DNA from: Bacillota bacterium
Lineage (GTDB): Bacteria; Sysuimicrobiota; Sysuimicrobiia; Sysuimicrobiales; Segetimicrobiaceae
Reading direction: 5' to 3'
Length of the DNA: 64,000 bases
Assembly (NCBI GenBank): GCA_021324255.1
Contig: JAJPJL010000126.1
Location: 29,855-93,854, forward strand
Shown here: positions 10,767-56,699 of the stretch, one piece after another
Numbering within the stretch: position 1 is the first letter of the stretch
Layout: every line of letters begins with the position of its first letter
Notes under the pieces: model-generated
What the model was told of the DNA's origin: nothing
The model's input: the letters and a program-made list of their open reading frames with translations, nothing else
Database searches by the model: none
Made by a program: the position numbers and the translations under genes

Positions 10767-13049
10767 ATGCCCCACCGCCCGGATGCCCGTCGCGCCGTCG
10801 GATGGTGTCTGGTGGCGCTGCTCTCGCTCGCGCTCGCCGCCCCGATCGCCGCCGCCGTCCCGTCGCCGAATATATGGCCCGCGGTGCTCGCCGCGGATAC
10901 CCTCGACCTGCCGGTCGCGGCAGGCATTCAGTATCACCGCGCGACGCTCGCGACCGCGGACGGCCCGCTCGTCGTGCATCAGATGCAGGTGGACCTCGGG
11001 ACCCCGACGATCCGGCTCGGCGTCGGGCTCGCCCGCGATCGGCTGATGAGCGACGACGAGCCCGTGTCGTCGATGGTGCTGCGCACGGGCGCGATCGCGG
11101 GCGTCAACGCCGATTACTTCGACATTCACCAGTCCGGGATGCCGCTCAACATCGTCGTGCAACAAGGTCAGCTGCTGCGCAGTCCGTGGCGCTGGGTGGC
11201 GTTCGTCGTCGGCAAGGACGGCACCGCGCGCATCGTCCGGTACCGGTGGACCGGCAGCATCACCCTGCCGGAAACGGGCGAGACGCGGGCGCTCGACGGG
11301 TTCAACACCGGGTTGATCCCGAACGGCATCGTGCTCATGTCGAACATCCGCGGGTACGGGGCGCCGCCGCCGGACCCGGCGACGCGCCAGATGGTCGTGG
11401 AGCTGACGGCGCCCGACGAGACCGGACACGCCTTCGTCAAGCAGATGTGGCCGCAGCAGGCATTCTACGCGCCGTTTCCCAACAACGACGTCATCCTGGT
11501 CGGCCTCGGAGCCGGGGCGGACTGGCTCGCGCGGCTCACGGCCGGTAGCCCGGTCCAGCTCAATCTGACGACCGATCCCGATTGGCACGACGCCCTGATG
11601 GCGATCGGCGGGGGGCCGATCCTCGTGCAAAACGGTCAGATCGTCGAGGATCCCGACGCGCCGTCGCCCAAGGAGCGGGACTACCGCTACCCGGTGATCG
11701 CCGTGGGCATCGGCCGCGATGGGCACACGCTGACGTTCGTCGAGGTGGACGGCCGGCAGCCGGCCCTCAGCATCGGGCTGACGCGCCCGCAGCTGGCACA
11801 GTATATGCTGCGGCTCGGCGCGGCCCAGGCCATGGCGTTCGACAGCGGCGGCTCCGCGACCATGGTGGTGCGTCTGCCCGGAGCGCCCGCGCCGGCCGTC
11901 GTGAACTCGCCGTCCGACGGCCAGGAACGCCCCGTGGGAGACGCGATCCTCGTGTACAGCTCGGCCGTCCCCGGGCCGCCGGCCCGCGTTCTGGTCAATG
12001 CCGGACGTCCCCTGGAGCTGTTCGCGGGCGCGAGCGCGACGCTGCCGCTGATCGGCGTGGACGCGCAAGACAATCCCGTGGCGCTGAGCGCGCCGGTCTC
12101 GGCCACCGTATCGCCGCCCACGCTAGTCACGATCGCCGCCGGGGCGGCCGCGATGCCGGCGCGCCCGCCGGGGGCCGGTGACCCCGCGGCGCAGGTCGCT
12201 CCGCCCGCCGAACCGGCGCCGTCCCTCAGCGTCACGGCCGGCCCGTCCGCGGGAAGCGGGACGCTCCAGGTGCAGAGCGGGGACGCGGGCGGGTCGATCC
12301 CCGTCTCCGTCGTCACGCGGCTGAGCCGGCTCGTCGTCAGCCCGGCGTCGGTGGCGGTGGCGCCGGGTGCCGGCGCGCAATTCACGGTGAGCGCCCAGGA
12401 TGCCGGCGGCCGGCCCGTCGGCCTCGCCGGTGCGCCCGTGGCATGGAGCGTCACGCCGGGCATTCTCGGCGCGATCACGCCGGGCGGCGCGTTCGTGGCC
12501 GGCGACGCGTTCGGCGCCGGAAGCGTGACGGTGCGGGCCGGCGGCGCGGTGGGGCACGCGCAGGTTGCGATCGGCAGCACCGCTCAGTACCTGAGCGTCT
12601 TCGATCGCGGCGCGTGGTCGTTTCGCGGGTATCCCGCGACGGTCTCCGGATCGGTCGGTCTCGTGAGGGATCCAGCGCACGATGGTCACCCCTCGGCGCG
12701 TCTGGCGTTTGCGCTGGACGGCACCGGCACGCGCGCCGCCTATCTCCTCACGCAGCTGCCCCTGCCGGGCGCTCCCACCGGCATCAGCGTCTGGGTGTAC
12801 GGGGACGGAAGCGGCGTCTGGCTGCGCGGCGCCTTCGACCAGGCCAACGGTGATCGCGGGACCGTCACGCTGGCGCGCCGCGTGGATTGGACCGGCTGGC
12901 GCTCCATCACGGTCCAGCTGCCCCCGGGCTTGGCGCTGCCGATCACCTGGGCGACCTTCTACGTGGTGGAGACGGACGCGTCGAGGACGCCGCACGGGGT
13001 GCTCTACCTGAGCGATCTGCGCGCGATCTACCCGGCGGGCGCCAAGTAG
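10767..13049 (+). CDS. Secreted phosphodiester glycosidase family protein (NAGPA/DUF2233-like) with C-terminal Ig-like (Big_2-type) repeats
   Basis: Signal peptide (CLVALLSLALAAPIAAA). The central region resembles DUF2233 uncovering-enzyme-like domains. The C-terminus has repeated beta-rich segments typical of Big_2 domains. Confidence 0.6.
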   Translation: MPHRPDARRAVGWCLVALLSLALAAPIAAAVPSPNIWPAVLAADTLDLPVAAGIQYHRATLATADGPLVVHQMQVDLGTPTIRLGVGLARDRLMSDDEPVSSMVLRTGAIAGVNADYFDIHQSGMPLNIVVQQGQLLRSPWRWVAFVVGKDGTARIVRYRWTGSITLPETGETRALDGFNTGLIPNGIVLMSNIRGYGAPPPDPATRQMVVELTAPDETGHAFVKQMWPQQAFYAPFPNNDVILVGLGAGADWLARLTAGSPVQLNLTTDPDWHDALMAIGGGPILVQNGQIVEDPDAPSPKERDYRYPVIAVGIGRDGHTLTFVEVDGRQPALSIGLTRPQLAQYMLRLGAAQAMAFDSGGSATMVVRLPGAPAPAVVNSPSDGQERPVGDAILVYSSAVPGPPARVLVNAGRPLELFAGASATLPLIGVDAQDNPVALSAPVSATVSPPTLVTIAAGAAAMPARPPGAGDPAAQVAPPAEPAPSLSVTAGPSAGSGTLQVQSGDAGGSIPVSVVTRLSRLVVSPASVAVAPGAGAQFTVSAQDAGGRPVGLAGAPVAWSVTPGILGAITPGGAFVAGDAFGAGSVTVRAGGAVGHAQVAIGSTAQYLSVFDRGAWSFRGYPATVSGSVGLVRDPAHDGHPSARLAFALDGTGTRAAYLLTQLPLPGAPTGISVWVYGDGSGVWLRGAFDQANGDRGTVTLARRVDWTGWRSITVQLPPGLALPITWATFYVVETDASRTPHGVLYLSDLRAIYPAGAK

Positions 13050-13114
13050 CCGCGCGACGCGCCGGAGGGGACGCGTCGCCGCGCGTCGAACACACGCGCG
13101 TTCCTGGACGCCTC

Positions 13115-15262
13115 ATGGCCTACGCCGTGCGATCCCTGTTGAGCCTCACGCTCGCCGTCGGGCTGCTCGCCAGCACCGCGGGGCCCGTGTTGCCGCAATC
13201 GCCTCCCACGCTCGCCGACGCGGTGGCAGCCTACGCGCGCGGCGACGTGCCCGGCGCCAGGATGATGTTGACCGCGCTGGCGCAGGACACCACCGCCGAC
13301 GGCGGGCGGGCATCGTACCTGCTCGGCGTCACGGAGCTTGCCGCGCGGCACTATGCGCCGGCCGCGCAGTTGTTCGTGCGTGCCGGGCAGGCCGTACCGG
13401 TGCTGGCCGACTACGCCGTCTACAACGGCGCGGTCGCGGCCTTCAAGATGGGCGAGTACGCGGCGGCCGCGCAGGGATTTCAGGACCTCCTGCAGCGATT
13501 TCCGGACAGCACGCTCCGGAAGGCGGCGGCGTTTCAGCGCGCGGAGTGCCTGCGCAACCTCGGCGCCCCGGACGCGCCCGACGCGTACCACGCGTACATA
13601 GAGATCGCGGGCGACGATCCGCAGACCGCGCAGGCGTGGTACGAGATGGGCGGCGCGCTGGAGCGCCAGAATCGATGGGGAGACGCGGCACAGGCCTATC
13701 GCCGCGTCCTCTGGGTGTTTCCGCAGACGCCCTACGCCCAGCCGGCAGCCCAACGCCTCCGCGCGCTCGCGGCCTCGCATCCGTTGCCGCCGGATGCCAC
13801 GCCGCCGGCGGCCGTGTACGAGCGCGGCGCCGGCGACTTCGCGGCGGGTCAGTTCGCGGCCGCGCGCGCCGAGCTCACGCACGCACTCCAGATGCCGGGC
13901 GGCTGGGTCGTGGCCGATCAAGCGCTGTACACGCTCGGCGTGATCGCCTACCGCAGCGGGCAGCTCGGCTCCGCCGCGGCGCTGTTCCGGCGGGACGTGG
14001 CGCTCGGGCAGGCCCACGCGGATGACGCTTCCTATTATCTTGTGCGCATCGCCCTCGCCCGCCGGGCCGAGGCCACCGCGGTGGCGCTTGCACGCACGCT
14101 GGCCAGGTCGTTCCCGCGGTCGTCGTTGGCGCCGCGCGGGCTCTATGCGGTGGCCGCGTTCCGGGAGGAGCGGGGCGCCGTGGAGGCGGCCGGCGCGCTC
14201 TTCGACGAGGCGGCGGCCGCCTTCCCCGGCACCTACTGGGGCGACCGCGCCGGCTGGGAGCTCGGCTGGATTCGCTACCGCATGCACGCGTGGCAGGGCG
14301 CGCTGGCCGCGTGGCGGCGGCTCGCCGGGGTGGCCGGCGACGCCGTCATGGCCGCCGCGGGATCGTACTGGGCGGCGCGAGCCGCCGCGGCGGTCGGCGA
14401 CGGCGCGGGCGCCCAGAACGGCTATCTCGTCACGGCCGCGAAGTTTCCGGAGACGTTCTACGGTCAGCTCGCGGCCGCGCAGGCGGGCGTCCCGCTGCGC
14501 CTCGCGGTCGCGCCACCGATGCCCGATCCGCCGGCGGGCGAGATCGCCTCGCTCGACCGCTTCCGTGAACTGGACGCGCTGGCGCAGACGGCCGACGCGA
14601 CCCGCGAACTCGAGGCCGCGGCGGCCGCCGCGCCGGCCCAAGACCGTGCCGCCGTGACGCTTCTGCTCGGTCAATACTACGAGCGGCAGCAGCAGATCGC
14701 GCGCGGCATCCTCGAAGCCGAACAGGCGCAGGCGCTCGGCGGCGCGCCCGGCGCCTTGCCGCTCGCGGTCTGGGAAGCGCTCTACCCTCGCCCGGAGTGG
14801 TCGACTATCGCGCAGGCCGCCGGGCGGGCGGAGGTCGATCCGTATCTCGTCGCCGCGGTGGTGCGCGAGGAGAGCCGCTTCGACCCGGCCGCCGTGTCCC
14901 CGGCCGGCGCCTACGGGCTGATGCAGCTGATGCCGGGCACGGCCAGGAGCGCCGCGCGGAGCGCCGGCGTGGCGCCGCCGGACCTGCGTGCGTTGACCGA
15001 TTCGCGCATCAACGTGCAGCTGGGCACGACGGTGCTCGCCGAGTTGCTCCGGCAGTTCGGGAGACCGGACCTGGCGCTCGCCGCGTACAACGCGGGGCCC
15101 GGCGCCGTGCGGCGCTGGCAGGCCCAACACGACTCGAGCGACCCCGCGGCGTTCGACGAGTCGATCCCGTACGACGAGACCCGAAGCTACGTCAAGACCG
15201 TGTTGCGCTCCGCCGCGATCTATCGCTGGCTGTACCGGGACGGGCATCCCTCGCCGCAGTAA
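13115..15262 (+). CDS. Soluble lytic murein transglycosylase (Slt family) with TPR-like repeats
   Basis: Signal peptide, superhelical TPR-like region, and a C-terminal SLT catalytic motif (REESRFDPAAVSPAGAYGLMQLMPGTA). Confidence 0.85.
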   Translation: MAYAVRSLLSLTLAVGLLASTAGPVLPQSPPTLADAVAAYARGDVPGARMMLTALAQDTTADGGRASYLLGVTELAARHYAPAAQLFVRAGQAVPVLADYAVYNGAVAAFKMGEYAAAAQGFQDLLQRFPDSTLRKAAAFQRAECLRNLGAPDAPDAYHAYIEIAGDDPQTAQAWYEMGGALERQNRWGDAAQAYRRVLWVFPQTPYAQPAAQRLRALAASHPLPPDATPPAAVYERGAGDFAAGQFAAARAELTHALQMPGGWVVADQALYTLGVIAYRSGQLGSAAALFRRDVALGQAHADDASYYLVRIALARRAEATAVALARTLARSFPRSSLAPRGLYAVAAFREERGAVEAAGALFDEAAAAFPGTYWGDRAGWELGWIRYRMHAWQGALAAWRRLAGVAGDAVMAAAGSYWAARAAAAVGDGAGAQNGYLVTAAKFPETFYGQLAAAQAGVPLRLAVAPPMPDPPAGEIASLDRFRELDALAQTADATRELEAAAAAAPAQDRAAVTLLLGQYYERQQQIARGILEAEQAQALGGAPGALPLAVWEALYPRPEWSTIAQAAGRAEVDPYLVAAVVREESRFDPAAVSPAGAYGLMQLMPGTARSAARSAGVAPPDLRALTDSRINVQLGTTVLAELLRQFGRPDLALAAYNAGPGAVRRWQAQHDSSDPAAFDESIPYDETRSYVKTVLRSAAIYRWLYRDGHPSPQ

Positions 15263-15523: not shown

Positions 15524-16807
15524 ATGACCGCAGCACACGCACGGGCAGCACTCATCGTGGTTGCAATCGCCGCGGGAATCGCCGTGGGCAGCGGGGCGGC
15601 CGTGGACGCGCCGGCTGCGCAGGCTGCGGCCGGATGGACTCGGGTGAGCATCGCGGGCTTGCTCGTGTCCGTCGACGCGGGGCGCCACACGCTGACGTTG
15701 GAGACCGCGCGCGGCCGGCTCCGGGTGCGGACCACCGCGTTCACGACGCTCGCAGTGGCGCCGTCGCGCGACGCTCCCGTCCGCCTGCCGGTGCGGTCGG
15801 TCGTGGAAGGCGTCCAATTGTCGGACGGTTCCGTGATCGCCGGCGTCGTGATCCTGGGCGGCGCCGGATCACCGCACGAGAGCGGCCGCCTGTCGGCGAC
15901 GCCCATCGGAACCTGGCTCGGCCAGCTCGATCCACCCGTCGGCGCCCACCAGACGGTCGCCTCGTTGTCGCAGGGTGAAGACGGGGTGCCGGCCGGGGTT
16001 CACTCCGGCGTCGATCCGCCGGTGAGGGATTTCTCGCCTCCCAAAGGCGCCGGCGGCAACGGCGGTGCGGGCGGCCCAGGCGGCGGCCGGAATTCGGTCA
16101 CCGGGCTCGGCAACGGCGGTCGCGGCGGCAACGGAGGGGACGGTGGCGACGCGTTCGGGCAGTTCAACGGGGGCAACGGCGGCGCGGGCGGCGCCGGGGG
16201 CGCGGGCGGAAACGACAACGGCGGCAACGGCGGCGGGGGCGGGAACGGCGGGGACGGCGGCGCGGCGGGGGCCGGGGTCGACGGCGGCAACGGCGGTGAT
16301 GGCGGCCAGGGCGGTGGCGGCGGCAACGGGGCGGTCGGGCCAAACGGCGGCAACGGCGGGCGCGGCGGCAACGGCGGCAATGGAGGCTCGTGCGCCGGCG
16401 CAGGGTGCTCGGGCGGCAACGGCGGCAACGGCGGCATGGGCGGCAACGGCGGCATGGGCGCCGCCGGCGGAGCCAACGGTAGCGGCGGAGCCGGCGGCAA
16501 CGGCGGCAATGGCGGTGGATGCGTCGGCGACGGATGCTCGGCCGGCAACGGCGGCAACCGCGGGCTCGGCGGTAGCGCCGGAGTGCCGACGGGGAGCCGC
16601 AGCGGGCAGGATGGTCAGAATGGCCAGAACGGCCAAAACGGACGGCCGGGGTCGGGCGGCGACGGTGGGAACGGCGGCAACGGGGGAAACGGTGGGAGCG
16701 CCTCGTGGGGCGGCGGCGCCGGCGGTTCGCCGGGCCCGGACGGCATGGGCGGCCGGGGCGGCGGCTGCGCGGGCAACGGGTGTTCTCCGGGCCGCGACGG
16801 CCACTGA
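15524..16807 (+). CDS. Secreted glycine/asparagine-rich repeat protein (PGRS-like GGNGG repeats with three CxGxGCS motifs)
   Basis: Signal peptide and a roughly 150-aa N-domain, followed by about 270 aa of GGNGG/GGAGG repeats with interspersed pairs of cysteines. Codon usage is consistent with the genome. Confidence 0.6.
   Translation: MTAAHARAALIVVAIAAGIAVGSGAAVDAPAAQAAAGWTRVSIAGLLVSVDAGRHTLTLETARGRLRVRTTAFTTLAVAPSRDAPVRLPVRSVVEGVQLSDGSVIAGVVILGGAGSPHESGRLSATPIGTWLGQLDPPVGAHQTVASLSQGEDGVPAGVHSGVDPPVRDFSPPKGAGGNGGAGGPGGGRNSVTGLGNGGRGGNGGDGGDAFGQFNGGNGGAGGAGGAGGNDNGGNGGGGGNGGDGGAAGAGVDGGNGGDGGQGGGGGNGAVGPNGGNGGRGGNGGNGGSCAGAGCSGGNGGNGGMGGNGGMGAAGGANGSGGAGGNGGNGGGCVGDGCSAGNGGNRGLGGSAGVPTGSRSGQDGQNGQNGQNGRPGSGGDGGNGGNGGNGGSASWGGGAGGSPGPDGMGGRGGGCAGNGCSPGRDGH
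16030..16800 (+). repeat. Coding tandem GC-rich repeat (units of GGCGGCAACGGCGGN)
   Basis: Short degenerate tandem units visible in the DNA. They correspond to the GGNGG protein repeats. Confidence 0.7.
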
Positions 16808-16853: not shown

Positions 16854-17615
16854 TCAGGACCGCCCAGCGCTCCGGATCGTGCCCACGAGCCGGTAGCCTG
16901 ACGGCGTCAGCGTTGCGATGCGGAGCCGGCCGCCGACCAGCGGGTGAATCGGGCCGTCACGCCGCCCACGCACGAACCGGGCCACGCCGAGCGTGATCGT
17001 TCCGAGGAACCTCGCCAGATCGACGCCGTCTGTGAGGCTCATGTCGCGCAGCGGCACCACGAATTCCAGGTTGGCGACCTGCTCCCGGGTGGTCGCGTCC
17101 AGCGCCGACAGATCCATCGCCGGATCGATGCCCTTGAAGAGCCGGCTGATCGCGAGACCCTGGCCGCGCCAGTGAAAGTTCGGCGCGTCGGTGGTGGAGA
17201 GCAGGCGCCGCTCGCCGGCGGGCCACACGGCCTCGTAGATCCGGCCGACGCCGTCGGGGCCGTAGGCGCCGATCAGAAAGCCGACCGCCTCGCGCGGCGG
17301 CGCGTCCTCCCGTGCGGGTTCATCGGCGCCGAGAAAGGCGAGCAGCTCGTCGGCCACCGCCGCCGCGTCCCGCACGGCGCCGGCGGACCGGCCGGCGGCG
17401 TATCGCCCCGCGAGCGCCGCAATCGTGTGACCGCGGACGTGGCTCCGGCCGTGCGTCACCGCCGCGGCGTGCCGTCCCAGCGCGAACACCTTGTGCGCGC
17501 CGTCGGTCACCACCTCGGCCCACCGGTGATCCGCCGCGTCGCGCCATCGCGTCGTCCGGCTGTCCGCCGCGAGCACGATGCCCTCTGAGAGTGAGATGGC
17601 AATCGCAATCGTCAT
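16854..17615 (-). CDS. Anbu-like / proteasome-type Ntn-hydrolase (orphan 20S beta-like subunit)
   Basis: N-terminus MTIAIAISLSEGIVLAADSRTT, with Thr immediately after Met and the GxVLAxDSRTT pattern of proteasome beta/HslV/Anbu catalytic subunits. About 250 aa. A strong SD (AAGGAGG) precedes the ATG. Confidence 0.6.
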   Translation of the reverse strand: MTIAIAISLSEGIVLAADSRTTRWRDAADHRWAEVVTDGAHKVFALGRHAAAVTHGRSHVRGHTIAALAGRYAAGRSAGAVRDAAAVADELLAFLGADEPAREDAPPREAVGFLIGAYGPDGVGRIYEAVWPAGERRLLSTTDAPNFHWRGQGLAISRLFKGIDPAMDLSALDATTREQVANLEFVVPLRDMSLTDGVDLARFLGTITLGVARFVRGRRDGPIHPLVGGRLRIATLTPSGYRLVGTIRSAGRS

Positions 17616-17749: not shown

Positions 17750-19579
17750 ATGGCGAGACGTGCGTCACGGCACGTGTGGCTTGCAGGCATCCTGATCCTC
17801 GCGGGCGCGCCGGCCGGCGGCCCCGCGGCGGCGCAACCGTTCTCGGACCGCGCCGCCCCGGCCTGGGTCTCGGCCGCGGTCCGCACGCTTGTCCGCGACG
17901 GCGTGGTGGCGGGGCCCGCGGCCGACGCGCAGGTCGCTCCGCTCCTCCGCGATGGTCGCGCTCACGTCACGCGCGCGGAGGTCGCGGTATGGCTCGCGCG
18001 CGTCCTCCCGTTGATTGCGAACCGGCTGCAGGCGTCTCCTCCCGCGGGTCCGATCTCGCGCGCCGACCTCGCCGCGCTGCGCCGCCTCATCGACGAATTT
18101 CAGGCCGAGCTGGCCTCGCTGGATGTCCTGACGGACGTGCTGCGGCGGCAGGTGACCGATCTCCAGCCGCTGCCGAGGCAGGTCAGGATCAGCGGCGATG
18201 TCCGTCTCCGGTACGAGCTCAGCCGCACGGCGCTCAACAACCCCGGGTTGGGCCCGATCGCGCCGTCGAGTGGCCAACCGCTCCTCAACCTGGCAAGCTT
18301 CCGGGCCCGCCTGGAGTTCGACGGCGGCCTGACGGATGACGCCCGGTTCCGGCTGCGGCTGACGACGTTCAACCAGATCGGGACGACCGCCGGGACGTTC
18401 AGCATCGTCAACGCGCCGCCGGCGGGCCAGCTCAACTCCATGTTCCTCCCGTTCAACAGCGGGCAGCAGGCGTCGATGACGATCATTGACATGTTCGAGT
18501 TCGACTGGGAGCGCGCGTTCGGGCTTCCGCTCGAGCTCCAAGCCGGCCGCCTCGGCGGCGATACGTGGTTGCCGCGTAACGGCGATCCACTGTACCCCGT
18601 GTCTCCGCCGCCCGGCCGCATCTCGCTCCTGCGGCTGGGCCCGATCGGACTCCTGCTCGACACCGCGAAGGATGTCATCGGCGAGCGCAGCCTAGAGACC
18701 TACGGGGTGGACGCGCTCGTGGCGAGCTACCGTCCCGACGGCTTCCGGGTGCAGGCGCTGCTCGGCGGGACGGGCGGCGTAACGTTCGCGGGTGGCAGGG
18801 TCGAGAGCGTGGTGGCGCCCGGCGTGACGGTCGGGGCCAATTTTCTCACCGACGCCTGCGACCCGGGCGGCGGCGTGAACAACGCGGAGCTCGTATCCGA
18901 CCTGACGCTGCTCGGCGCCGGCAAGGGCGTCGCCCAATGTTCCTTTGTCTGGTGGGGGGCGCAAAACGGATGGGTGCCGGCCGCCAATGCCGGCACGACG
19001 AGCCCGATCACCAACATTCCCGGGACCGGGTACGGCGCCGACATCGACGCGGCGCTCGCGCCCAACCTGCGCCTGCAGGGCGAGATCGCCTGGTGGTACG
19101 ACCCCGCGGCGCAGACGACGGGGCTCGGCTGGCAAGTGCAGGCGGTCCTGGGGCACGCGGGCGGGCGGACGCCCGCCGTGGTGCTCGGCTATCAATCGTT
19201 CGATTCGGCGTTCTATCCGGCGTACGGCGGCGCTGAGGATCCCGTCGTCGGCTTCATCTGGCCGGGCGGCTTCCGGGACGCGTTCGGGATCATCGACCTG
19301 CCGCCGCTGGCGGGGTGGACGCTGTCCGCCGGGTACGAGACCGGCACGTCGCTCGGCGTCGGCCCGCAGCCGGGGGCGGTCGGATTTGGCGGCCCGGCGT
19401 TTGCGAACGCCGTGTGCGAGAGCTGCCTCGGCTCCGGCCAGCCGTTCTCCGGCTGGCTCGCCGCGGCCGCCCACGCGGTCGGCGGGAACGCGACGGTGCG
19501 CCTCTACTACTATTCGTGGCAGCTGAACGGCGCCTCGCAGGACGACACGTACCGCGTAGAAATCGACTACCGCTTCTAA
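17750..19579 (+). CDS. SLH-domain outer-membrane beta-barrel protein (OmpM/Slp-like porin)
   Basis: Signal peptide, an SLH motif (FSDRAAPAWVSAAVRTLVRDGVVAG), a coiled-coil segment, then an amphipathic beta-rich C-terminal half ending in ...YRF. Confidence 0.6.
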   Translation: MARRASRHVWLAGILILAGAPAGGPAAAQPFSDRAAPAWVSAAVRTLVRDGVVAGPAADAQVAPLLRDGRAHVTRAEVAVWLARVLPLIANRLQASPPAGPISRADLAALRRLIDEFQAELASLDVLTDVLRRQVTDLQPLPRQVRISGDVRLRYELSRTALNNPGLGPIAPSSGQPLLNLASFRARLEFDGGLTDDARFRLRLTTFNQIGTTAGTFSIVNAPPAGQLNSMFLPFNSGQQASMTIIDMFEFDWERAFGLPLELQAGRLGGDTWLPRNGDPLYPVSPPPGRISLLRLGPIGLLLDTAKDVIGERSLETYGVDALVASYRPDGFRVQALLGGTGGVTFAGGRVESVVAPGVTVGANFLTDACDPGGGVNNAELVSDLTLLGAGKGVAQCSFVWWGAQNGWVPAANAGTTSPITNIPGTGYGADIDAALAPNLRLQGEIAWWYDPAAQTTGLGWQVQAVLGHAGGRTPAVVLGYQSFDSAFYPAYGGAEDPVVGFIWPGGFRDAFGIIDLPPLAGWTLSAGYETGTSLGVGPQPGAVGFGGPAFANAVCESCLGSGQPFSGWLAAAAHAVGGNATVRLYYYSWQLNGASQDDTYRVEIDYRF

Positions 19580-30254: not shown

Positions 30255-30953
30255 CTATGCCTCGCCGGCCGCGCGCGCGATCGCGTGGACGAACCGCTCC
30301 GTGATCGCCTCCGGCATGGTGATGGCCCGGCCCACGACCACCGCCCACGCGCCGGCCCGGAGCGCCGCCACGGCCTCCTCGGGGTTCGTGATGCGGCCCT
30401 CGGCGACGACCGGCACCGCAACCTCCCGCGCGAGCGCCCGCACCAGGTCGAGATCGGGGCCGGCCGTCTCGTCGCTGCGCGGCGTGTAGCCCGCCATCGT
30501 CGTGGCGACGAGATCGGCGCCGTTCGCCGCCGCCGCGCGGCCCTCGTCCAGGGTCGATACGTCGGCCATGACCGGGAGGCCACACTCGGCGTGGATGCGG
30601 CCGATCAGCGCGGGGAGCGGATCCGCCGCCTCGTCCGCGTCGCGCTCTTGCGTGGCCTGGACGGCGATGAGGTCGGCGCCGGCGTCGGCCAGGGCGCGGG
30701 CTTCCGCAAACGTGGGCGTGATGTACGCGGTCCGACCGCGCAGCTTGTAGAGCCCGATGACCGGCACGTCGACGACCCGCCGGACCGCCGCGACATCGGC
30801 GGGTCCGTCGATCCTCAGGCCCGCGGCGCCGCCGAGCACGGCGCAGCGGGCGAGCGCCGCGATCATCGCGGGGTCGCGCAGCGGACTGCCCGGCAGCGCC
30901 TGACACGACACGATCAGCTTGTGGCGCAGCCGGTCCCGCCAGCCCGGCGTCAC
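30255..30953 (-). CDS. nanE: N-acetylmannosamine-6-phosphate 2-epimerase
   Basis: KLIVSCQALPGSPL motif. About 232 aa from the GTG at 30953, which overlaps the upstream stop (GTGA). The ORF-track N-terminal extension is rejected. Confidence 0.85.
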   Translation of the reverse strand: MTPGWRDRLRHKLIVSCQALPGSPLRDPAMIAALARCAVLGGAAGLRIDGPADVAAVRRVVDVPVIGLYKLRGRTAYITPTFAEARALADAGADLIAVQATQERDADEAADPLPALIGRIHAECGLPVMADVSTLDEGRAAAANGADLVATTMAGYTPRSDETAGPDLDLVRALAREVAVPVVAEGRITNPEEAVAALRAGAWAVVVGRAITMPEAITERFVHAIARAAGEA

Positions 30954-31951
30954 GACGGTCGCTCCTCGGCGTTGCGGAGCGCCCACGTGGCGGCGAGCAG
31001 GGCGAGGCGCTCCGGGGTCGGCGTCACGTCCGCGGCCTGCAGCGCCAAGAGCAGCGCGCCGGCCGCGGGCTCGTAGCGAGGCGGCACCACGGCGGCGCCC
31101 GGGACCTGCGCCGCGAGGGCGAGGCGGAACGGCTCGAGCACGATCGCGCCGGCGTCGAACACCCCGCCGACGGGCGCGACCGCGGTTGCGCCGTCGGGCC
31201 AACGGAGGCGGCGGATCACGGCCACGGCCAGCGCCGCCAGCGACGCGGCCGCGTGCTCCACGATGCCGCGGGCGACCTGGTCCCCCGCCGCCGCCGCCGC
31301 GGTTACGGCGGGCGCAAGCCCGGCGATGCGGCGCCGGTCCAGCTGCCCGGCGTAGTAGGCGATGGGGATGGCCTCCAGGTTCATGCCCCCCACGGCCGGG
31401 ATCCGCGCGGTGAGCGCGGTCGCGGGCCCGCTGCCGTCGACGGCCCGGAGGGCCGCGTGCACCGCCGCCCGGCCGAGGGCAAAGGCGCTGCCATCGTCGC
31501 CAAAGAGGTATCCCCAGCCGCCGGCGCGGGCGTCGATGCCCCGGGCATCGCGGCCCAGGGCCACGGAGCCCGTGCCGGCGATCACCGCCACGCCCGGACC
31601 ACCGGCGAGCGCGCCGGCCAGCGCGATCCGGGCGTCGTTGTCCACGCCGATCGTGCGCGCCCGGAGCACCTCGCGGACCACTTCTTCGAACGCGCGTGAG
31701 CGGTCGGTGTTGACATTGATGCCCGTCATGCCGAACTGCGCCGCGCGAAACTCGACGTCCCCGAGCCGGGCCGCCCGCAGCGCCGCGGCGAGTGACGTCG
31801 CGACCGCCTCGCGCGCCCGCGCCCGTCCGCCGGGTGCGAGGATATGGTTACTGGGACCGCCGCGACCGATGCCCAGCACCGCGCCGTCGATCGTGGCCAC
31901 GGCGCAGAGGGTACTCGATGCTCCGCCGTCGACTCCGAGCACATAGTCCAT
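30950..31951 (-). CDS. BadF/BadG/BcrA/BcrD-type ATPase, N-acetylglucosamine (or MurNAc) kinase-like
   Basis: LGVDGGASST...GVDNDARIALAG...IAGTGS...GGWGYLFGDDGS motifs of the eukaryotic-type GlcNAc kinase family. Confidence 0.75.
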   Translation of the reverse strand: MDYVLGVDGGASSTLCAVATIDGAVLGIGRGGPSNHILAPGGRARAREAVATSLAAALRAARLGDVEFRAAQFGMTGINVNTDRSRAFEEVVREVLRARTIGVDNDARIALAGALAGGPGVAVIAGTGSVALGRDARGIDARAGGWGYLFGDDGSAFALGRAAVHAALRAVDGSGPATALTARIPAVGGMNLEAIPIAYYAGQLDRRRIAGLAPAVTAAAAAGDQVARGIVEHAAASLAALAVAVIRRLRWPDGATAVAPVGGVFDAGAIVLEPFRLALAAQVPGAAVVPPRYEPAAGALLLALQAADVTPTPERLALLAATWALRNAEERPS

Positions 31952-32076
31952 AGCGCGGCTCCGTTTCGCAGGCGCGTACCCCGGGTCCTTTGCCCGGCGG
32001 CCTCACCTGCACCCGGATGACCACACGGGAGACCGCGACCTGCTCCAGGAGCACGCGTGGCGCCCGATACCCCGTC

Positions 32077-33222
32077 CTAGGCCGGTGGGCGGGGGAGGAG
32101 CGCACGCGCCACCGCCTCGGCGATCCGCGGGCGCAGCGCCAGGATCTCCGTGCGGTCGCGGCCCAGATGGATCGCGTTGGCGAGCAGCACGATCGCCAGC
32201 TCGTGCTCCGGATCGATGACGAGCGCGGTGCCGGTGAAGCCGGTGTGGCCGTACGCACGCGCCGACAACGCGCCGCCCCACCAGCCCTGCGTCCCCGTGA
32301 GGGCCCAGCCGAGTCCCCGCGCCGCGTCGCCGGAGGTCTGCGGCGCCGTCGCCTCCCTCACGAGTTCCGGGCTCAGCACCCGCGAGCCCGGACCGCGACC
32401 TCGTGCGAGCCACATCCTCGCGTACTCGATGAGGTCGCCCGCCGTCCCAAACAACCCCGCGTGCCCGGACACCCCGCCCATGGCGTGAGCGTTGCCGTCG
32501 TGGACCTCGCCCCAGACGAGCGTCGTGCGCCAGCGGTGGTGGTGGTGGCGTGCCGCCTCGGCGGCGGGGCGCTCCCGCTCGGACGCCGTCATCTGCTGCT
32601 CGATCCCCGTGCCGTCCTCGGTGGGCGCCACGCGCGCGCGCAGGGCCGCCGGCGGACGGTAGCGAGTGTCGCGCATCGCGAGCGGCGCAAACACGCCGTC
32701 ACCGGCCGCCTCGTCGATCGGCCGGCCGAGCGTCCGGCGCGCAATCTCGCCGAGGAGAATAAATCCGACGTCGCTGTACACCACGCGCGTGCCGGGCGGC
32801 GCCTCGAGCGGCGTGGCCGCGGCCCGGGCGATGATCGCGTCGTACCCCTCGGCCTCGAGGTAGAACGGGATCCACGCCGGGAGGCCGGAGGTGTGAGCGA
32901 GCAGGTGCCGCAGCGTGACGTCGCGATGCGGGAACTCGGGCAGGTGCCAGGCGGCGGGATCGTCGAGGCCGAGCCGGTGCTGCATCACCGCCTGCAAGAT
33001 CAACGGTGTGGCGGCCACCACTTTGGTCAGCGAGGCGAGATCGTAGATCGTCGCCGTGGTCGCCGGGCGGGGCGCCGGCCGGCGGGCGGCGAGCCCCTCG
33101 GCGTGCCGCAGCACGACTTCGCCGCGGTAGAGCACGGCGAGCACGGCGCCGGGGTACGCGCGTCCGACGCCGTCTGCCAGCAGGCGGAGCGCGGGGGCGA
33201 ACGCGCTCGCGGGAGCGGTCAC
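32077..33222 (-). CDS. Serine hydrolase of the beta-lactamase/transpeptidase superfamily (class C/AmpH-like)
   Basis: SxxK motif (ASLTK), a YSD/YxN-like motif and a later HTG triad. The GTG at 33222 overlaps the anmK stop (GTGA). Confidence 0.75.
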   Translation of the reverse strand: MTAPASAFAPALRLLADGVGRAYPGAVLAVLYRGEVVLRHAEGLAARRPAPRPATTATIYDLASLTKVVAATPLILQAVMQHRLGLDDPAAWHLPEFPHRDVTLRHLLAHTSGLPAWIPFYLEAEGYDAIIARAAATPLEAPPGTRVVYSDVGFILLGEIARRTLGRPIDEAAGDGVFAPLAMRDTRYRPPAALRARVAPTEDGTGIEQQMTASERERPAAEAARHHHHRWRTTLVWGEVHDGNAHAMGGVSGHAGLFGTAGDLIEYARMWLARGRGPGSRVLSPELVREATAPQTSGDAARGLGWALTGTQGWWGGALSARAYGHTGFTGTALVIDPEHELAIVLLANAIHLGRDRTEILALRPRIAEAVARALLPRPPA

Positions 33223-34583
33223 ACCCGGTTCCGCGCCGCGCCCCGGAGCGCCCCGGGCGGCGGCCACGTCCACTTCCCGAGCAGCGACGCGTGCCGCGCG
33301 CCGGTGACTCGGGGCAGGTTGCCCGCCATGCCCATCACGGTCGCGTGCCCCAGCAGCGCGAACGCGATGGCTTCCTTGGCGCTGGACGGCACGCCGAACT
33401 CGTCGATGCGCCGCAGGCGAATCGGCGCGATGTCCCGCGCGAGGCGCCGCATCAGCACCCGGTTATGGACGCCGCCGCCCGCGGCGACGAGGTCGACGAT
33501 GGCGTGACGCGGCAGGACGTACCGTCTGATGTTGAGGCTCACGGCGTCCGCCGCGAACGCCGTCGCCGTCGCGATGAGGTCGTCCGCGCCGAGGCGGCGC
33601 CATCGGGCGAGCAGCGCGCGCAGGAACGGTTGGCCGAACTGCTCGTGCCCGGCCGTCTTCGGCGGCGGGGCCGTGACGAAGGGATCGTCGAGCAGTTCCC
33701 GGAGCAACGCGTCGTGCACCCGGCCGCGGGCGGCCCGGTTCCCGCCGCGGTCGAAGGTCTCGGCGCCGCGGGTGAAGTGCCGCACCAGCCCGTCGATGAC
33801 CATGTTCGCGGGCCCGCAGTCGAACGCGGTCACGTCGGCGCGGCGGGCGCCCGCCGGCAGGACCGTCAGGTTCGAGATCCCGCCGAGGTTGAGCGCGATC
33901 CGCCCAGCCGGGCCCGCCAGGAGCGCGAGGTCCGCGTACGGCACCAGCGGCGCCGCCTGTCCCCCGGCCGCGATGTCGGCGGCCCGAAAATCGGCGATGA
34001 CCGGACGCCCGGTCCGCTCCGCGATGACGGCGGCCTCGGCCAGCTGCAACGTAGCCGCGCGCCCCCACGGATCCGCGGCGTCCGGAACGCCCACGTGGGC
34101 GACCGTCTGCCCGTGGGAGGCGATGAAATCCACGCTGTTCATCCGCCGGCCGGCGCGCCGCGCGGCGGCGGCCGCGGCGGCGGCGAAGTACTCGCCGAGC
34201 AGGTAATGGAGCGAGGCGAGCCGCTGCGTGGTCACCGGCTGCGTGCACACGTCCAGGACGCGCTGGCGTACCTCCGCGGGATAGGGCACCGTCGTGTATG
34301 CGACGAGCCGTACGCGCGGCGGCCCCGGCTCCGCGTCGCGCCGGCTCCGCGTCGCGGCGGCACGCCCGGCGGCGCCGTCGGTGACCTCGACGAGGGCCGC
34401 GGCCACGCCGTCGGCGCTCGTCCCCGAAATCAGGCCGATGATGTGCTTCGTCCGCTTCGCGCGGATCGTCTCCAAGGCGCGCGCCCCGGTCGCGAAAGGG
34501 GCGCCGGAGCCCGCGGCGGCGAGGCTCGCCGCCGCAGGCCCCCGGTTCCCCGGCGCGGATCCGCCGCGGCGTGTGGGGCTCAC
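33219..34583 (-). CDS. anmK: Anhydro-N-acetylmuramic acid kinase
   Basis: IIGLISGTSADG N-terminal motif and AnmK-wide similarity. The GTG at 34583 overlaps the murQ stop (GTGA). An alternative TTG start at 34475 gives the canonical N-terminus. Confidence 0.85.
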   Translation of the reverse strand: MSPTRRGGSAPGNRGPAAASLAAAGSGAPFATGARALETIRAKRTKHIIGLISGTSADGVAAALVEVTDGAAGRAAATRSRRDAEPGPPRVRLVAYTTVPYPAEVRQRVLDVCTQPVTTQRLASLHYLLGEYFAAAAAAAARRAGRRMNSVDFIASHGQTVAHVGVPDAADPWGRAATLQLAEAAVIAERTGRPVIADFRAADIAAGGQAAPLVPYADLALLAGPAGRIALNLGGISNLTVLPAGARRADVTAFDCGPANMVIDGLVRHFTRGAETFDRGGNRAARGRVHDALLRELLDDPFVTAPPPKTAGHEQFGQPFLRALLARWRRLGADDLIATATAFAADAVSLNIRRYVLPRHAIVDLVAAGGGVHNRVLMRRLARDIAPIRLRRIDEFGVPSSAKEAIAFALLGHATVMGMAGNLPRVTGARHASLLGKWTWPPPGALRGAARNRV

Positions 34584-35485
34584 GGGTCCGCCCGCCCGAC
34601 TGCCCCGCGGACGCTTCCGGCCTCCTGGAGCGCGCGGGCCGCGGCGTCGGGGTCGAGGCCGCGGGCGAGCATGACGATGGCGACCGGCACCCGGCCGCCG
34701 GCGCGCCCGAGGGCGTCCGCTGCCGCGGCGGCGCCGGCTCCGGTCGCCGCCGAAACGATGCGCAGCGCCCGGCGGCGCAGCTTGTCGTTGGTGGCCTGCA
34801 CGTCGACCATCAGGTTGCCGTAGACCTTGCCGAGCTGCACCATGGTCAGCGTGCTCAACATGTTCAGCACGAGCTTCTGCGCCGTGCCGGCCTTGAGTCG
34901 CGTGCTGCCGGCGATGATCTCCGGGCCCACCAGCGGCGCGATCGTGAGCGCGCAGGCCGCTTCCAGCGAGGACGCGGGCGAGCACGCGACGCCGATCGTG
35001 ACCGCGCCGCGCTCTGCGGCGCGCCGCACCGCCCCCAGGACAAACGGCGTCTCGCCGCTCGCGGCAACACCCACGACGGCGTCGGACGGGCCGGCCCCCA
35101 GCGCATCCATCTCCCGCGCTCCCTGCGCGGCGTCGTCCTCCGCGCCTTCGATCGCGTGGAGCATCGCGCCCGGCCCGCCGGCGATGACGGCTTGCACGAG
35201 GTCCGGCGGCGTGCCGAACGTCGGCGGGCACTCGGCCGCGTCCAGCACGGCCAGGCGGCCGCTCGTGCCCGCGCCGACGTAGATGAGGCGGCCGCCGCGC
35301 CGCAGCGCCTGCGCGATGCGGCGCACCGCCTCGGCGATCTGCGGCAGGGTCGCCCCCACGGCGCCGGGCACCAGCCGGTCTTCGTCGTTCATGAGCCGGG
35401 CCTGCTCGATGACCGGCAGCAGGTCGAGCGCCCGTGTCCGTTCGTTGACCGACTCGGTCAACGGTTCGCGCGGCGACGATGTCAT
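34580..35485 (-). CDS. murQ: N-acetylmuramic acid 6-phosphate etherase
   Basis: SIS domain with GAGTSGRL and the MurQ-specific N-terminus (ERTRALDLLPVIEQARLMNDED). Confidence 0.9.
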   Translation of the reverse strand: MTSSPREPLTESVNERTRALDLLPVIEQARLMNDEDRLVPGAVGATLPQIAEAVRRIAQALRRGGRLIYVGAGTSGRLAVLDAAECPPTFGTPPDLVQAVIAGGPGAMLHAIEGAEDDAAQGAREMDALGAGPSDAVVGVAASGETPFVLGAVRRAAERGAVTIGVACSPASSLEAACALTIAPLVGPEIIAGSTRLKAGTAQKLVLNMLSTLTMVQLGKVYGNLMVDVQATNDKLRRRALRIVSAATGAGAAAAADALGRAGGRVPVAIVMLARGLDPDAAARALQEAGSVRGAVGRADP

Positions 35486-35555
35486 GGGGCCTCCGTGCCG
35501 TCGTTCGACATGGGTGCCCGCCGAGCCGGTGCGTCGCGCCCACGCGGGCCCTCGA

Positions 35556-36467
35556 TCATAGGCGCAGGCGGGGATCCAACACGTCCCGCAGCCCGTCCCC
35601 GAGCAGGTTGAACCCGAGCACGATGAGGGAGATCGCCGCCCCCGGAAATACTGCGGTCCACGGCGCCATCGTCATGAACCGCCGCGCCTCGGCGAGCATG
35701 TTGCCCCAGGACGGCGTCGGCGGTTGCGTGCCCAGGCCGAGGAAGCTCAGGGCCGACTCGGTCAGGATCGCGAAGGAGAGGCTCAGCGATGTCTGCACGA
35801 TGATCGGCGCCAGGATGTTGGGGACGATGTGGTGCAGCAGGATGCGCGGCACGCCGGCGCCTTGCGCCCGCGCCGCCTCCACGTACTCGATGCCGCGCGC
35901 CTGGAGCACGCTGCCTCGCGTCACCCTCGCGAACTGCGGCGTGTACACGATGCCGATCGCGGCGACGAGCACGGGCGGCGTCGTCCCCGCGACGGCCATG
36001 ATGGCGATGGCGAGCAGGACCGCCGGAAAGGCGAAGACGACGTCCATGCTCCGCATCAACACGCTGTCGAGCGCGCCGCCGTAGTATCCGCTCACGACGC
36101 CGATGGTCCCGCCCGCGCCGAGGGCGAGCGCCACGGACGCGAACGAGACGCCGAGCGAGACGCGGGAACCGTAGAGGAGCCGGCTCAGGATGTCGCGGCC
36201 GAACTGGTCCGTGCCGAACGGATGCCCCGCGCCGGGCCGGGCCAGCAGCGCGGTCGGGGCCATGGCGGCCGGATCGGCCGGAGCGAACAGCGGCGCGCCG
36301 GCCGCCGCCACGAGGTACGCGGCGACGATGAGCGAGCCCGCCACGGCGGTCGGGGTGCGGGCCAGGGCCCGGACGCGCGACGGACGGCGGCGGGTCGCGG
36401 CGCCGCCGGTCGCGCGTCCCCGTCGCGCCGCGGCGAGCGCCGGCTTCGGCGCGGGGGCGGTGCTCAT
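35556..36467 (-). CDS. ABC transporter permease, DppC/OppC-like
   Basis: Six transmembrane helices and an EAA-type motif (VEAARAQGAG). The ATG at 36467 overlaps the upstream stop (ATGA). Confidence 0.85.
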   Translation of the reverse strand: MSTAPAPKPALAAARRGRATGGAATRRRPSRVRALARTPTAVAGSLIVAAYLVAAAGAPLFAPADPAAMAPTALLARPGAGHPFGTDQFGRDILSRLLYGSRVSLGVSFASVALALGAGGTIGVVSGYYGGALDSVLMRSMDVVFAFPAVLLAIAIMAVAGTTPPVLVAAIGIVYTPQFARVTRGSVLQARGIEYVEAARAQGAGVPRILLHHIVPNILAPIIVQTSLSLSFAILTESALSFLGLGTQPPTPSWGNMLAEARRFMTMAPWTAVFPGAAISLIVLGFNLLGDGLRDVLDPRLRL

Positions 36468-37411
36468 CGGTAGCGCACGCGTGGATCCGCGAGCGCATAG
36501 AGCACGTCCACGGCCAGGTTGGTCAGCACGAAGAGGCCCGCGATCAGCAGGACGACGCCTTGGACGACGGGGTAGTCTCGCTGGCCGATGGCGTTCAGCG
36601 CCAGGCGGCCCATGCCGGGCAACGCGAACACCTCCTCGATGACGACGGTGCCGCCGAGCAGGTAGCCCGCCTGGTAGCCGATGACGGTGATCACCGGGAT
36701 CAGCGCGTTGCGCAGCGCGTGACGGTTGACGACGATCCGGGCGAGCAGACCTTTGGCCCGCGCGGTCCGCACGTAGTCTTCCCCCAGGACCTCGAGGAGC
36801 GAGGACCGGACGAACCGCATGAAGACCGCGGCGAGCGACACGCCGAGCGAGATCGCCGGCAGCGCCATGATCGTGAGGTTCGCGAGGGGGTTGGCCGCCA
36901 GCCCGACGTACGTGCCGATGGACGCGATCGGAGAGTTGGCCAGGAGGAGCAGGAGCATCGCGGCCAGCCAGAAATTCGGGATGCTGAGCCCGAGGAGACC
37001 GCCCACGGTGACCAGCGTGTCCGCCGCCGTCCCGCGGCGTAGGGCCGCGACGATGCCGATGGGGATCCCGAGCCCGAGCGCGATGACGAGGGCCAGCACG
37101 GTGATCTCGATGCTGATCGGAAGGCGTGCCAGGATGTCGGGCAGCACCGGGCGGCTCGTGCGCAACGAGACGCCGAAGTCGCCCTGCAGGACGCGGCCGA
37201 TCCAATCCACGTATTGCAGCGGCAGGGGCTTGTCGATGCCGAAGAGGCGCCGGAGCTCGGCCATCTGGGCCGGCGTCATGGCCACCTGGGTGCCGAGAAA
37301 CATTTGCACCGCGTCGCCCGGCAGCAGCCGGACGAGCAGAAAGACGACGATCGATACTCCCCACAGCACCGGCAGCAGCCCGAGGAGCCGGCCGGCGAGA
37401 TAGCCGGTCAC
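36464..37411 (-). CDS. ABC transporter permease, DppB/OppB-like
   Basis: Typical DppB fold and motifs (VRTARAKGL). Confidence 0.85.
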   Translation of the reverse strand: MTGYLAGRLLGLLPVLWGVSIVVFLLVRLLPGDAVQMFLGTQVAMTPAQMAELRRLFGIDKPLPLQYVDWIGRVLQGDFGVSLRTSRPVLPDILARLPISIEITVLALVIALGLGIPIGIVAALRRGTAADTLVTVGGLLGLSIPNFWLAAMLLLLLANSPIASIGTYVGLAANPLANLTIMALPAISLGVSLAAVFMRFVRSSLLEVLGEDYVRTARAKGLLARIVVNRHALRNALIPVITVIGYQAGYLLGGTVVIEEVFALPGMGRLALNAIGQRDYPVVQGVVLLIAGLFVLTNLAVDVLYALADPRVRYR

Positions 37412-37537
37412 CCGGCGCGCTCCGGTCGCGCGCGGCCACCCGGCCGCCGGTTGCCGAGGTGCGGGGGCGTCACGATTGGCTGCGGGGGAGACGCGCCGGC
37501 GGGCGCGGCCATACGGCGCGCCCGCCGGCAGCGCAGG

Positions 37538-39058: not shown

Positions 39059-39193
39059 CGCTCACCCCCGTCGTTGCGTCCCCGGGCCCGGCGCGAGCCG
39101 GATGCCGGGTCGGCCATCGCGTACCTCAGCGTACCAGGCGCCGGCGCATCCCGGAGCGGGCCCCGGCCCGATCGGCCGCCCCGCCGCGCGCCG

Positions 39194-45676: not shown

Positions 45677-45752
45677 TCGCCGGCGCGCGCTCCCGGCCGG
45701 ACCGTGGTCCGCCGTCCCCGACCGCCCGCCGGGCCGGGGCGCCGCCGCACTG

Positions 45753-45761
45753 TGTTACAAT
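45753..45761 (+). promoter_or_regulatory. Extended -10 promoter element TGtTACAAT
   Basis: Read at 45753-45761. It lies about 38 nt upstream of the GTG at 45799, which carries the SD AAGGAG at 45784-45789. Confidence 0.4.
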
Positions 45762-45798
45762 GAGCGTGGCCAGTTCGAGCGGCAAGGAGTCCGTCGTC

Positions 45799-46701
45799 GT
45801 GACCGCGTTCGACCACCTCACGGGTTTCCTATGCGGCGAAGAAGAGATCGCGGCGGCCTACCTCTACGGGCAGCCGGCCGTGACCCGTACCTGGCCCGAC
45901 TCCGATATCGAGATCGGGATCCTCTTTCGTGAAGGGCTCGGCAACGACGCCATCACGGAATATCTGGAAGGACTCGGGAGCAGCCATCCCCTCGGTGATC
46001 ACCCCGGGATCCTCATGCCGTTTTCGCTCAACGTGCACCTGCTGCCCGTGGTGTACGAGGTGCTGACGTGGGGCTCGCTGCTGGCGGACAACGACCCCGC
46101 GGCGCGCGAAGGCTTTGTCCGGCAGACGAGCGAGCGCCTCGCGCAGGAGCGCCCGCGCCTCTTGGAGGAGGCGCACGAGACGATTCTCAAGGCGCGGGCC
46201 TTTGGGCTCCCGTCCACCGACGACGCCGTCCGTGCGGCCTCGCAGCCGGCCCGGCCGCTCGATCCTGTGCGGGCGGGCTGGCGGCTCGCGCGCGTGCTCA
46301 CGTCGGTGCCCATCCTCGAGATGTTCACGCGCGACGTCGAGGCGGTGGCGCAGGACGCCGAACGGGTGGGGCAGATCATCGGCGTCTTCAGCAACGCCAG
46401 CGGCGCCGCGACGGGCATCGCCAAAGCGCTGCTGACGACGCTCGGCATCGCGCGCCCTCCGCGCCGGTGGGAGGTATTTCTGCCGCTCGCCGACGCCGGC
46501 ATCATCCCCATGGAGCTCGCGCTCCACCTCGCGGCGATGGTGGAAACGCGGTGGACGCTGCTCACGGGCGGCGGCCTCATCGCGCCGGAGCGCGTGATCG
46601 CGCTGATCCGCGGTTACCTGCCGGCCATCATCACGTTCGCGCGGCGGGCGTCGTGGGCGACGGAACTCCCCGGTTTGACGGCGACGCAACGGCTGCACTG
46701 A
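45799..46701 (+). CDS. Hypothetical protein with an N-terminal nucleotidyltransferase-like motif (YGQ...DSDIEIGILF) and a C-terminal helical domain
   Basis: GTG with AAGGAG SD. The ORF-track start at 45406 is rejected, and the in-frame ATG at 45760 coincides with the -10 element. Probably cotranscribed with the downstream STPK (14-nt gap). Confidence 0.45.
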   Translation: MTAFDHLTGFLCGEEEIAAAYLYGQPAVTRTWPDSDIEIGILFREGLGNDAITEYLEGLGSSHPLGDHPGILMPFSLNVHLLPVVYEVLTWGSLLADNDPAAREGFVRQTSERLAQERPRLLEEAHETILKARAFGLPSTDDAVRAASQPARPLDPVRAGWRLARVLTSVPILEMFTRDVEAVAQDAERVGQIIGVFSNASGAATGIAKALLTTLGIARPPRRWEVFLPLADAGIIPMELALHLAAMVETRWTLLTGGGLIAPERVIALIRGYLPAIITFARRASWATELPGLTATQRLH

Positions 46702-46715
46702 GCACGTCCATCCCC

Positions 46716-48332
<1,617 letters not shown>

Positions 48333-54583: not shown

Positions 54584-54614
54584 TATATCAATGTAGACAA
54601 CTTTCCAAGAGACC

Positions 54615-55676: not shown

Positions 55677-55679
55677 CAC

Positions 55680-56660: not shown

Positions 56661-56699
56661 TGAATCATGACTAAGTTAGTCGACAATATCAGCTTCGCG

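Follow-up and report, generated by a model that had tools for sequence, protein, structure and literature searches.

A gene on the forward strand of a 64,000-nucleotide stretch of contig JAJPJL010000126.1 (assembly GCA_021324255.1), which we call the window, encodes a 609-residue protein that probably belongs to the OmpM class of a two-membrane Terrabacterial cell, in which it would act as a specialised paralogue, a wall-tethered substrate-specific channel rather than the principal tether of the outer membrane. The whole gene for this S-layer homology (SLH)-anchored, OmpM-like outer membrane β-barrel protein occupies positions 17750-19579 (+), stop codon included; coordinates are window positions throughout, residue numbers (aa) are those of the 609-residue protein, and P- and L-numbers designate clusters and loci of homologues. 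Sequence comparison and structure modelling directly support the domain architecture, the OmpM-type homology and the predicted barrel fold. From these we infer the protein's membrane location, trimer formation, wall ligand, channel specificity and disulfides.

The open reading frame (ORF) runs from an ATG at 17750 to a stop codon at 19577-19579 and its product ends in YRVEIDYRF. Its GC bias by codon position is of the type found in real genes (GC3 0.82, in a window of 70-75% GC), and full-length homologues free of frameshifts exist at 91, 73, 72 and 49-53% identity, which argues that the gene is under selection; judged by its sequence, it is a real gene. A longer version starting at GTG 17312 was set aside, since it would run into the divergent gene at 16854-17615 and the N-termini of the homologues do not support it. 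An identical protein (P0001) is encoded in contig JBAIIF010000025.1 of GCA_037025025.1 as well as in about 20 metagenome contigs. Among species-representative genomes the closest homologue, 91% identical, is that of Bacillota bacterium isolate Centralia_MAG_233, and the remainder come from soil genomes. The family has few members: 5.8 billion proteins, searched twice by word index, yielded only 10-11 clusters, all of them from uncultured high-GC bacteria, all annotated as 'hypothetical protein', and none with a precomputed Pfam domain.

The N-terminus, MARRASRH-VWLAGILILAGA-PAGGPAAAQ, is compatible with a Sec signal. The putative signal peptide delimited by a hydropathy scan (aa 1-28; 17750-17833, +) has a basic n-region, a hydrophobic core of 12 residues and a PAAAQ cleavage region, and carries no lipobox cysteine. 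The mature chain, in which no transmembrane helix is found (highest 19-residue hydropathy 1.1), would start with QPF, in alignment with the mature starts of its canonical relatives (described below) and of OmpM1, the outer membrane tether and porin of diderm Firmicutes known from Veillonella parvula (PDB 8BYM, 8BYS and 8BYT; isolated stalk 8BZ2). What follows (aa 29-95; 17834-18034, +) is a single repeat homologous to SLH, an assignment that sequence comparison indicates is real, of a divergent, degenerate kind that keeps PFSD, W39 and T74-R75-A-E77 while the GYPDGTF loop is replaced. A phmmer search of the PDB with the protein matched OmpM1 over aa 26-204 (E 2e-4), and a profile built from ten family members gave E values of 6e-15 with OmpM1, 5e-10 with the isolated OmpM1 stalk and 8e-4 with the SLH domain of Bacillus anthracis Sap. 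In the alignment with the closest canonical relatives, the standard HWAYDAIxxLAAKGxxxGYPDGTFKGDRxxTRYE becomes PAWVSAAVRTLVRDGVVAGPAADAQVAPLLRDGRAHVTRAE. F31, W39, T74 and R75 each reach at least 90% conservation within the family. SLH domains contact their ligand through a Trp, a Gly and the Arg of the TRAE motif (PMC10628300), and W39, T74 and R75 correspond to ligand-contact residues named in that work. AlphaFold places the SLH helices at aa 39-49, 60-66 and 75-94, with predicted local distance difference test (pLDDT) values of about 70-84.

The lone SLH repeat is joined to the barrel by a putative coiled-coil stalk of about five heptads (aa 104-140; 18059-18169, +). Over these residues two heptad registers place L, I, V, M or F at 67-69% of the a and d positions, as against about 20% elsewhere; the segment is helical in both AlphaFold models and aligns with the coiled coil of OmpM1. 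The two models were computed from a 10-sequence alignment of the family and from a 21-sequence alignment to which canonical relatives had been added, and the same 18 strands emerge from both, forming a predicted outer membrane β-barrel over aa 145-608 (18182-19573, +). The second model has an overall pLDDT of 68.4 and a predicted template-modelling score (pTM) of 0.64, with most strand blocks at 74-92. Hydrophobicity alternates in 13 of the 18 predicted strands, and setting the N-terminus on the periplasmic side gives periplasmic turns of 2-8 residues and outward loops of up to 54. A C-terminal signal of the Y-R-F kind serves barrel insertion in substrates of the β-barrel assembly machinery (BAM), and here the last strand carries such a β-signal, Y601-R-V-E-I-D-Y607-R-F609 (19532-19576, +), which aligns with the OmpM1 end YRAELNYKF; Y601, R602, Y607 and F609 are invariant in the family, and the chain terminates in Y-R-F. 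The original prediction, made from the sequence of the window, had proposed an OmpM/Slp-like architecture of signal peptide, SLH motif, coiled coil and C-terminal barrel with a Phe end, all of which sequence, profile and fold now back; it was silent on the degeneracy of the SLH repeat, on a count of 18 predicted strands in place of the OmpM-like 16, and on the existence of a canonical SLH-barrel protein in the same lineage.

Three of the loops that would face outward stand apart in their conservation. L5 (aa 371-424; 18860-19021, +), modelled at low confidence, contains the motif AQCSFVWWGAQNGW and C397, with C370 closing strand 9 just ahead of it, and is 46% invariant. L7 (aa 485-507; 19202-19270, +), with FYPxxGxAEDPVVGFIxPGGF, is 61% invariant and in part common to the canonical relatives. 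L8 (aa 535-563; 19352-19438, +), with GVGPQPGAVGFGGPxF...AVCxxC, is 62% invariant. The 46-62% of invariant positions in these loops compares with 25% in the strands and 14% in the SLH repeat. Alignment with the canonical relatives shows both L5 and L8 to be insertions, that of L8 being specific to the family, and four invariant cysteines, C370 and C397 together with the C556-x-x-C559 pair, lie in or at them; AlphaFold does not place these two loops (pLDDT 33-52). In general porins the surface loops are usually the most variable part. The predicted barrel resembles 18-stranded proteobacterial outer membrane channels, namely Occ/OprD (OpdQ, PDB 3T24, and OccAB3/4), Campylobacter jejuni MOMP, AlgE and Escherichia coli ChiP, a likeness at the level of the fold, with no detectable sequence relation (8-16% identity in structural alignments). 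Loops so highly conserved, on a predicted barrel of this kind, suggest a fixed constriction or a binding site; the conserved cysteine-bearing outward loops thus hint, within what the models allow, at a specific channel and suggest a specific transport function.

The canonical relatives were reached only by exhaustive profile search, the word-indexed searches having missed them. Searching 1.84 billion representatives with the family profile gave 2271 matches, mostly over positions 10-150, and PF00395 is present in 58 of 60 that were sampled. Among the canonical SLH-barrel proteins, which are uncharacterised, are P0012, P0013, P0017, P0022, P0016 (from Armatimonadota) and P0027 (TMJ06560.1, from a CSP1-3 genome). 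P0012, which has a canonical SLH repeat and whose JGI annotation reads 'S-layer homology domain', aligns by BLASTP with the 609-residue protein over aa 25-609 (27% identity, E 9e-47), so that the whole protein, and not its N-terminus alone, belongs to the wider SLH-barrel family. The barrel motifs QFGPxGLL, GYQxFxxxFYPPxGxAE and YRxxxxYxF are common to the two groups. The canonical proteins differ in having the standard HWAYDAIxxLAAKGxxxGYPDGTFKGDR repeat, detected by PF00395, and in having neither the cysteines of the porin family nor its insertions at L5 and L8.

The glutamate synthase (GltB) encoded in the window most likely ties it to the lineage in which one of these canonical proteins occurs. 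Its matches form a tight clade at 72-97% identity, below which they drop to at most 63% (Armatimonadota, Chloroflexi and Rokubacteria), and the best named match, at 76%, is from 'Bacillati bacterium ANGP1'. The ANGP1 genomes, and with them a 'Firmicutes bacterium', are listed under GTDB phylum CSP1-3 (the present Sysuimicrobiota) at 64-70% GC, and the phylum is placed in the Terrabacteria beside Armatimonadota (PMC11604079). The window is accordingly assigned to CSP1-3 with moderate confidence, on the best named match of one marker and on NCBI names, not on a phylogeny. Genome GCA_005888595.1, listed as CSP1-3 type material (PMC11604079), encodes TMJ06560.1, a canonical SLH-barrel protein of 483 residues that is recognised by PF00395 and ends in YRVELFYSW; the 609-residue protein is probably a divergent paralogue. 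Near the canonical gene, on the opposite strand, lies a gene for a Gly/Thr-rich protein of 177 residues with a signal peptide (L017 2472-3005, -; L018 2639-3172, -). In GCA_005888595.1 this neighbour ends in GVTLSY and has a weak OMP_b-brl match (E 0.022); possibly it forms a small outer membrane barrel.

A degenerate, weakly conserved SLH repeat, conserved loops with four cysteines, and a canonical SLH-barrel protein in the lineage together argue for a specialised paralogue. In the proposed arrangement, Sec would export the protein, and the terminal Y-R-F signal would direct insertion of the C-terminal 18-stranded barrel into the outer membrane. A coiled coil of about 37 residues, probably trimeric, would then cross the periplasm, and the N-terminal SLH repeat would sit on the cell wall, probably on a pyruvylated wall polymer, through its kept Trp and Thr-Arg. 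More tentatively, and with rather less chance of being right, the family can be seen as an unrecognised variant of the OmpM system, in which disulfide-stapled loops would form the binding site of a wall-tethered 18-stranded substrate-specific channel whose SLH repeat lies beyond the reach of Pfam. Were this so, the protein would, together with the canonical CSP1-3 SLH-barrel protein, provide the first evidence of two membranes in the uncultured CSP1-3 (Sysuimicrobiota), and surveys that define OmpM by PF00395 would undercount such tethers; this narrow porin family is one that a Pfam-SLH screen would miss.

The alternative that fares best is the one that the original prediction had implied, that the protein is the main outer membrane tether and a general diffusion porin, the functional equivalent of Veillonella OmpM1. 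It shares with OmpM1 the same domain order and direct sequence homology, it keeps W39 and T74-R75, and the OmpM paralogues of V. parvula do fill both roles (PMC10628300). However, the SLH repeat is the least conserved region of the mature protein and has lost its GYPDGTF loop; the predicted barrel is closer to the substrate-specific 18-stranded Occ/OprD, AlgE and ChiP channels than to the 16-stranded barrel of OmpM1; conservation of the outward loops is unusually high; the same phylum has a canonical SLH-barrel protein; and the family is very narrow, at about 11 clusters. A principal tether and diffusion porin is on this balance unlikely.

Several observations count against a wall-tethered channel of the OmpM class. 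The Pfam SLH model fails to match the 609-residue protein even at E <= 10, nor does any other Pfam family. Neither the Glu of TRAE nor the Gly that matches G58 of OmpM1 is constant within the family (in the family alignment the equivalent of G69 is missing in P0006-P0009 and E77 is replaced by Gln in P0008), and because these positions are not invariant, binding to the wall may have become weaker or disappeared. Confidence in the barrel model as a whole is moderate, with pLDDT below 50 in loops L2, L3, L5 and L8, which makes strand count and loop placement predictions. Finally, no gene for BamA, Lpx, Lpt, Skp, TolC or CsaB is found in the window and its 8-kb right flank, about 72 kb in total, the flank containing only Suf, Nuo-like and dehydrogenase genes. 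The failure of the Pfam SLH model, the variable Gly and Glu and the poor conservation of the N-terminal domain favour a second alternative: an SLH remnant that has ceased to bind the wall, on a channel whose coiled coil would extend into the periplasm, for instance to promote oligomerisation or to dock a periplasmic partner. Against it, F31, W39, T74, R75 and A79/A83 are kept across lineages that are only 49-53% identical, and the SLH helices are modelled at the pLDDT noted above; the retained residues and the modelled helices argue for a folded domain under selection. The loss of wall binding is accordingly judged improbable, somewhat more so than the role of principal tether, and the wall-tethered, specialised paralogue is retained as the preferred assignment.

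That the cell has two membranes is likely. The pointers are the outer membrane-type predicted barrel of the 609-residue protein and the canonical SLH-barrel protein in the same phylum, which together point to a wall-tethered outer membrane in CSP1-3. PASTA kinases are typical of monoderm Firmicutes and Actinobacteria. One is encoded in the window, no outer membrane gene is seen near the porin gene, NCBI labels the genome of a close relative 'Bacillota bacterium', and SLH domains do anchor S-layer proteins in monoderm Firmicutes (10.1101/2021.05.31.446380); these facts would fit a single-membrane cell in which the protein, anchored to the wall, belongs to the surface or S-layer and its β-rich half is a soluble or lattice domain, a reading judged most improbable. 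OmpM homologues occur in all diderm Terrabacterial phyla surveyed, Armatimonadetes included, OmpM-type tethers are reportedly the rule there, and proteins of this type serve as markers of one as opposed to two membranes in uncultured Terrabacteria (10.1101/2021.05.31.446380). Outer membrane biogenesis genes were found in none of the neighbourhoods of P0009, P0008, P0022, P0307 and P0308. The GT19 family is that of LpxB. GT19 is reported among the genes gained in CSP1-3 (PMC11962464); this is the sole indirect hint of outer membrane biogenesis genes in the host genome. The CSP1-3 genome papers (PMC11604079, PMC11962464) do not discuss the envelope, their supplements do not list bamA, lpxA, lptD or csaB, and no paper was found that joins CSP1-3 to a diderm analysis.

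The interpretation in the original prediction is supported in part. Its diderm envelope is plausible and likely for this genome, but the genes for BamA, Lpx, Lpt and CsaB are missing from the 72 kb. Its further claim of an unusual envelope for an organism of 70% GC is not supported. High-GC Deinococcus and Thermus use the same SLH tether-porin system, so high GC content is no evidence of anything unusual, and OmpM-type tethers are reportedly the rule among diderm Terrabacteria. The PASTA kinase and the GldG-type exporter that it invoked are both present, but neither is specific for an outer membrane, and its reference to Chloroflexi-like lineages is doubtful, the survey having the Chloroflexi as a monoderm clade in which SLH porins were lost (10.1101/2021.05.31.446380).

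No envelope-biogenesis cluster surrounds the porin gene. The same-strand genes upstream of it encode an ABC-2 exporter with a GldG-like protein (7878-9263) and DUF4340, a NAGPA-domain protein, a lytic transglycosylase with TPR and SLT parts, and a secreted protein rich in glycine; on the downstream side are a peptidase S9 gene and a set for glycerophosphodiester uptake with glycerol kinase. The sole neighbour conserved across the porin family is the divergent gene at 16854-17615 (-), whose product of 253 residues starts MTIAIA, with Thr at position 2. Homologues of 253-261 residues and 46-89% identity (for example L010 3286-4056 and L012 6222-7007) are adjacent and divergent to the porin gene in L001-L005, L007 and L010-L013 and absent in L006. 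No Pfam or NCBIfam family matches the MTIAIA protein, and its PDB matches, all sub-threshold (E 0.1-0.4), are to proteasome β subunits or Anbu; on sequence it may be an N-terminal-nucleophile hydrolase of the proteasome-β/Anbu kind. The Gly-rich protein (15524-16807, +; 427 residues) has a hydrophobic N-terminal segment, possibly a signal peptide, and GGNGG-type glycine repeats over its C-terminal two thirds; no family matches it, and only aa 38-193 are conserved in L005 and L006. The Slt70-type TPR and SLT lytic transglycosylase (12887-15262, +) has a TPR part with sub-threshold matches to YbgF/CpoB and BamD models, which are read as generic TPR similarity and not as evidence of Tol-Pal or BAM. 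A promoter and terminator scan around the porin gene found none, and an Rfam scan of the whole window gave no match.

Elsewhere in the window, a cluster on the reverse strand at about 30950-39061 looks like a peptidoglycan recycling cluster: it encodes a BadF/NagK-like ATPase, a β-lactamase-fold protein, AnmK (about 33.27-34.45 kb), a MurQ-like SIS protein (34580-35671), and a peptide ABC permease and binding protein. The PASTA kinase is a Ser/Thr kinase with two PASTA repeats in the ORF at 46068-48332 (+), in which translation probably starts close to 46.8 kb; the ORF immediately before the kinase (45406-46701, +) has weak HepT-like and nucleotidyltransferase matches and is possibly another toxin-antitoxin module. 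An AbiEi/AbiEii type IV toxin-antitoxin pair (54615-55676 and 55680-56540) lies in a low-GC island at 54000-56700 (57.5% GC, with about 70% around it) that was probably acquired horizontally. In the region at 56765-64000 and L016 11784-16470, the Suf operon has a Rieske [2Fe-2S] gene between sufD and sufS and is followed by a four-gene NuoB-NuoD-ferredoxin-NuoC module without membrane subunits and then by a sulfite-oxidase-like molybdoenzyme. A short ORF with a Fic/DOC domain (3611-4045, +) lies within the stretch at 2.8-4.4 kb, the rest of which is unassigned.

Comparison with known systems places the protein beside, and not within, several better-described groups. An S-layer protein of the Sap, EA1 or SbsB type, in which three tandem SLH repeats precede a non-membrane assembly domain, was rejected: only one repeat is present, the match to Sap spans a single repeat (profile positions 25-82), and the C-terminal part is a predicted membrane barrel. 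Membership in Occ/OprD was likewise rejected, for want of a Pfam match to that family model and at the low identities given above; channels of this type come from Gracilicutes and possess neither SLH nor coiled coil. The cyanobacterial SomB-type iron uptake porins (NF033921) also combine SLH, coiled coil and porin, and theirs is the sole curated family model matched (NCBIfam, E 1.3e-9), but the match is sub-threshold, at 37.2 bits against a cut-off of 100, and covers aa 31-216 and profile positions 7-182 of 485 while the barrel goes unmatched, so that membership in the SomB family was set aside. SlpA of Deinococcus radiodurans (PDB 7ZGX), a high-GC Terrabacterium, likewise has an SLH domain, a coiled coil and an outer membrane barrel, and a broad profile (A4) matches its N-terminus at E 2e-24. 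From OmpM1, with its TRYE motif and its 16 strands (PMC10628300), the 609-residue protein differs in its 18 predicted strands, its missing GYPDGTF loop, an SLH repeat invisible to Pfam and long conserved loops with four cysteines; it keeps the canonical TRAE, which is associated with binding of pyruvylated polymer rather than of polyamine (PMC10628300). OmpM-like tether porins are defined as an SLH domain with a β-barrel porin, and are screened for operationally with PF00395 at its gathering cut-off (10.1101/2021.05.31.446380). The 609-residue protein has each of these structural parts, its barrel as a prediction, and escapes the PF00395 gathering threshold. On sequence and model, then, it is a divergent member of the already known OmpM-like class, and it adds a further lineage to a known system while leaving the current understanding of that system in place.

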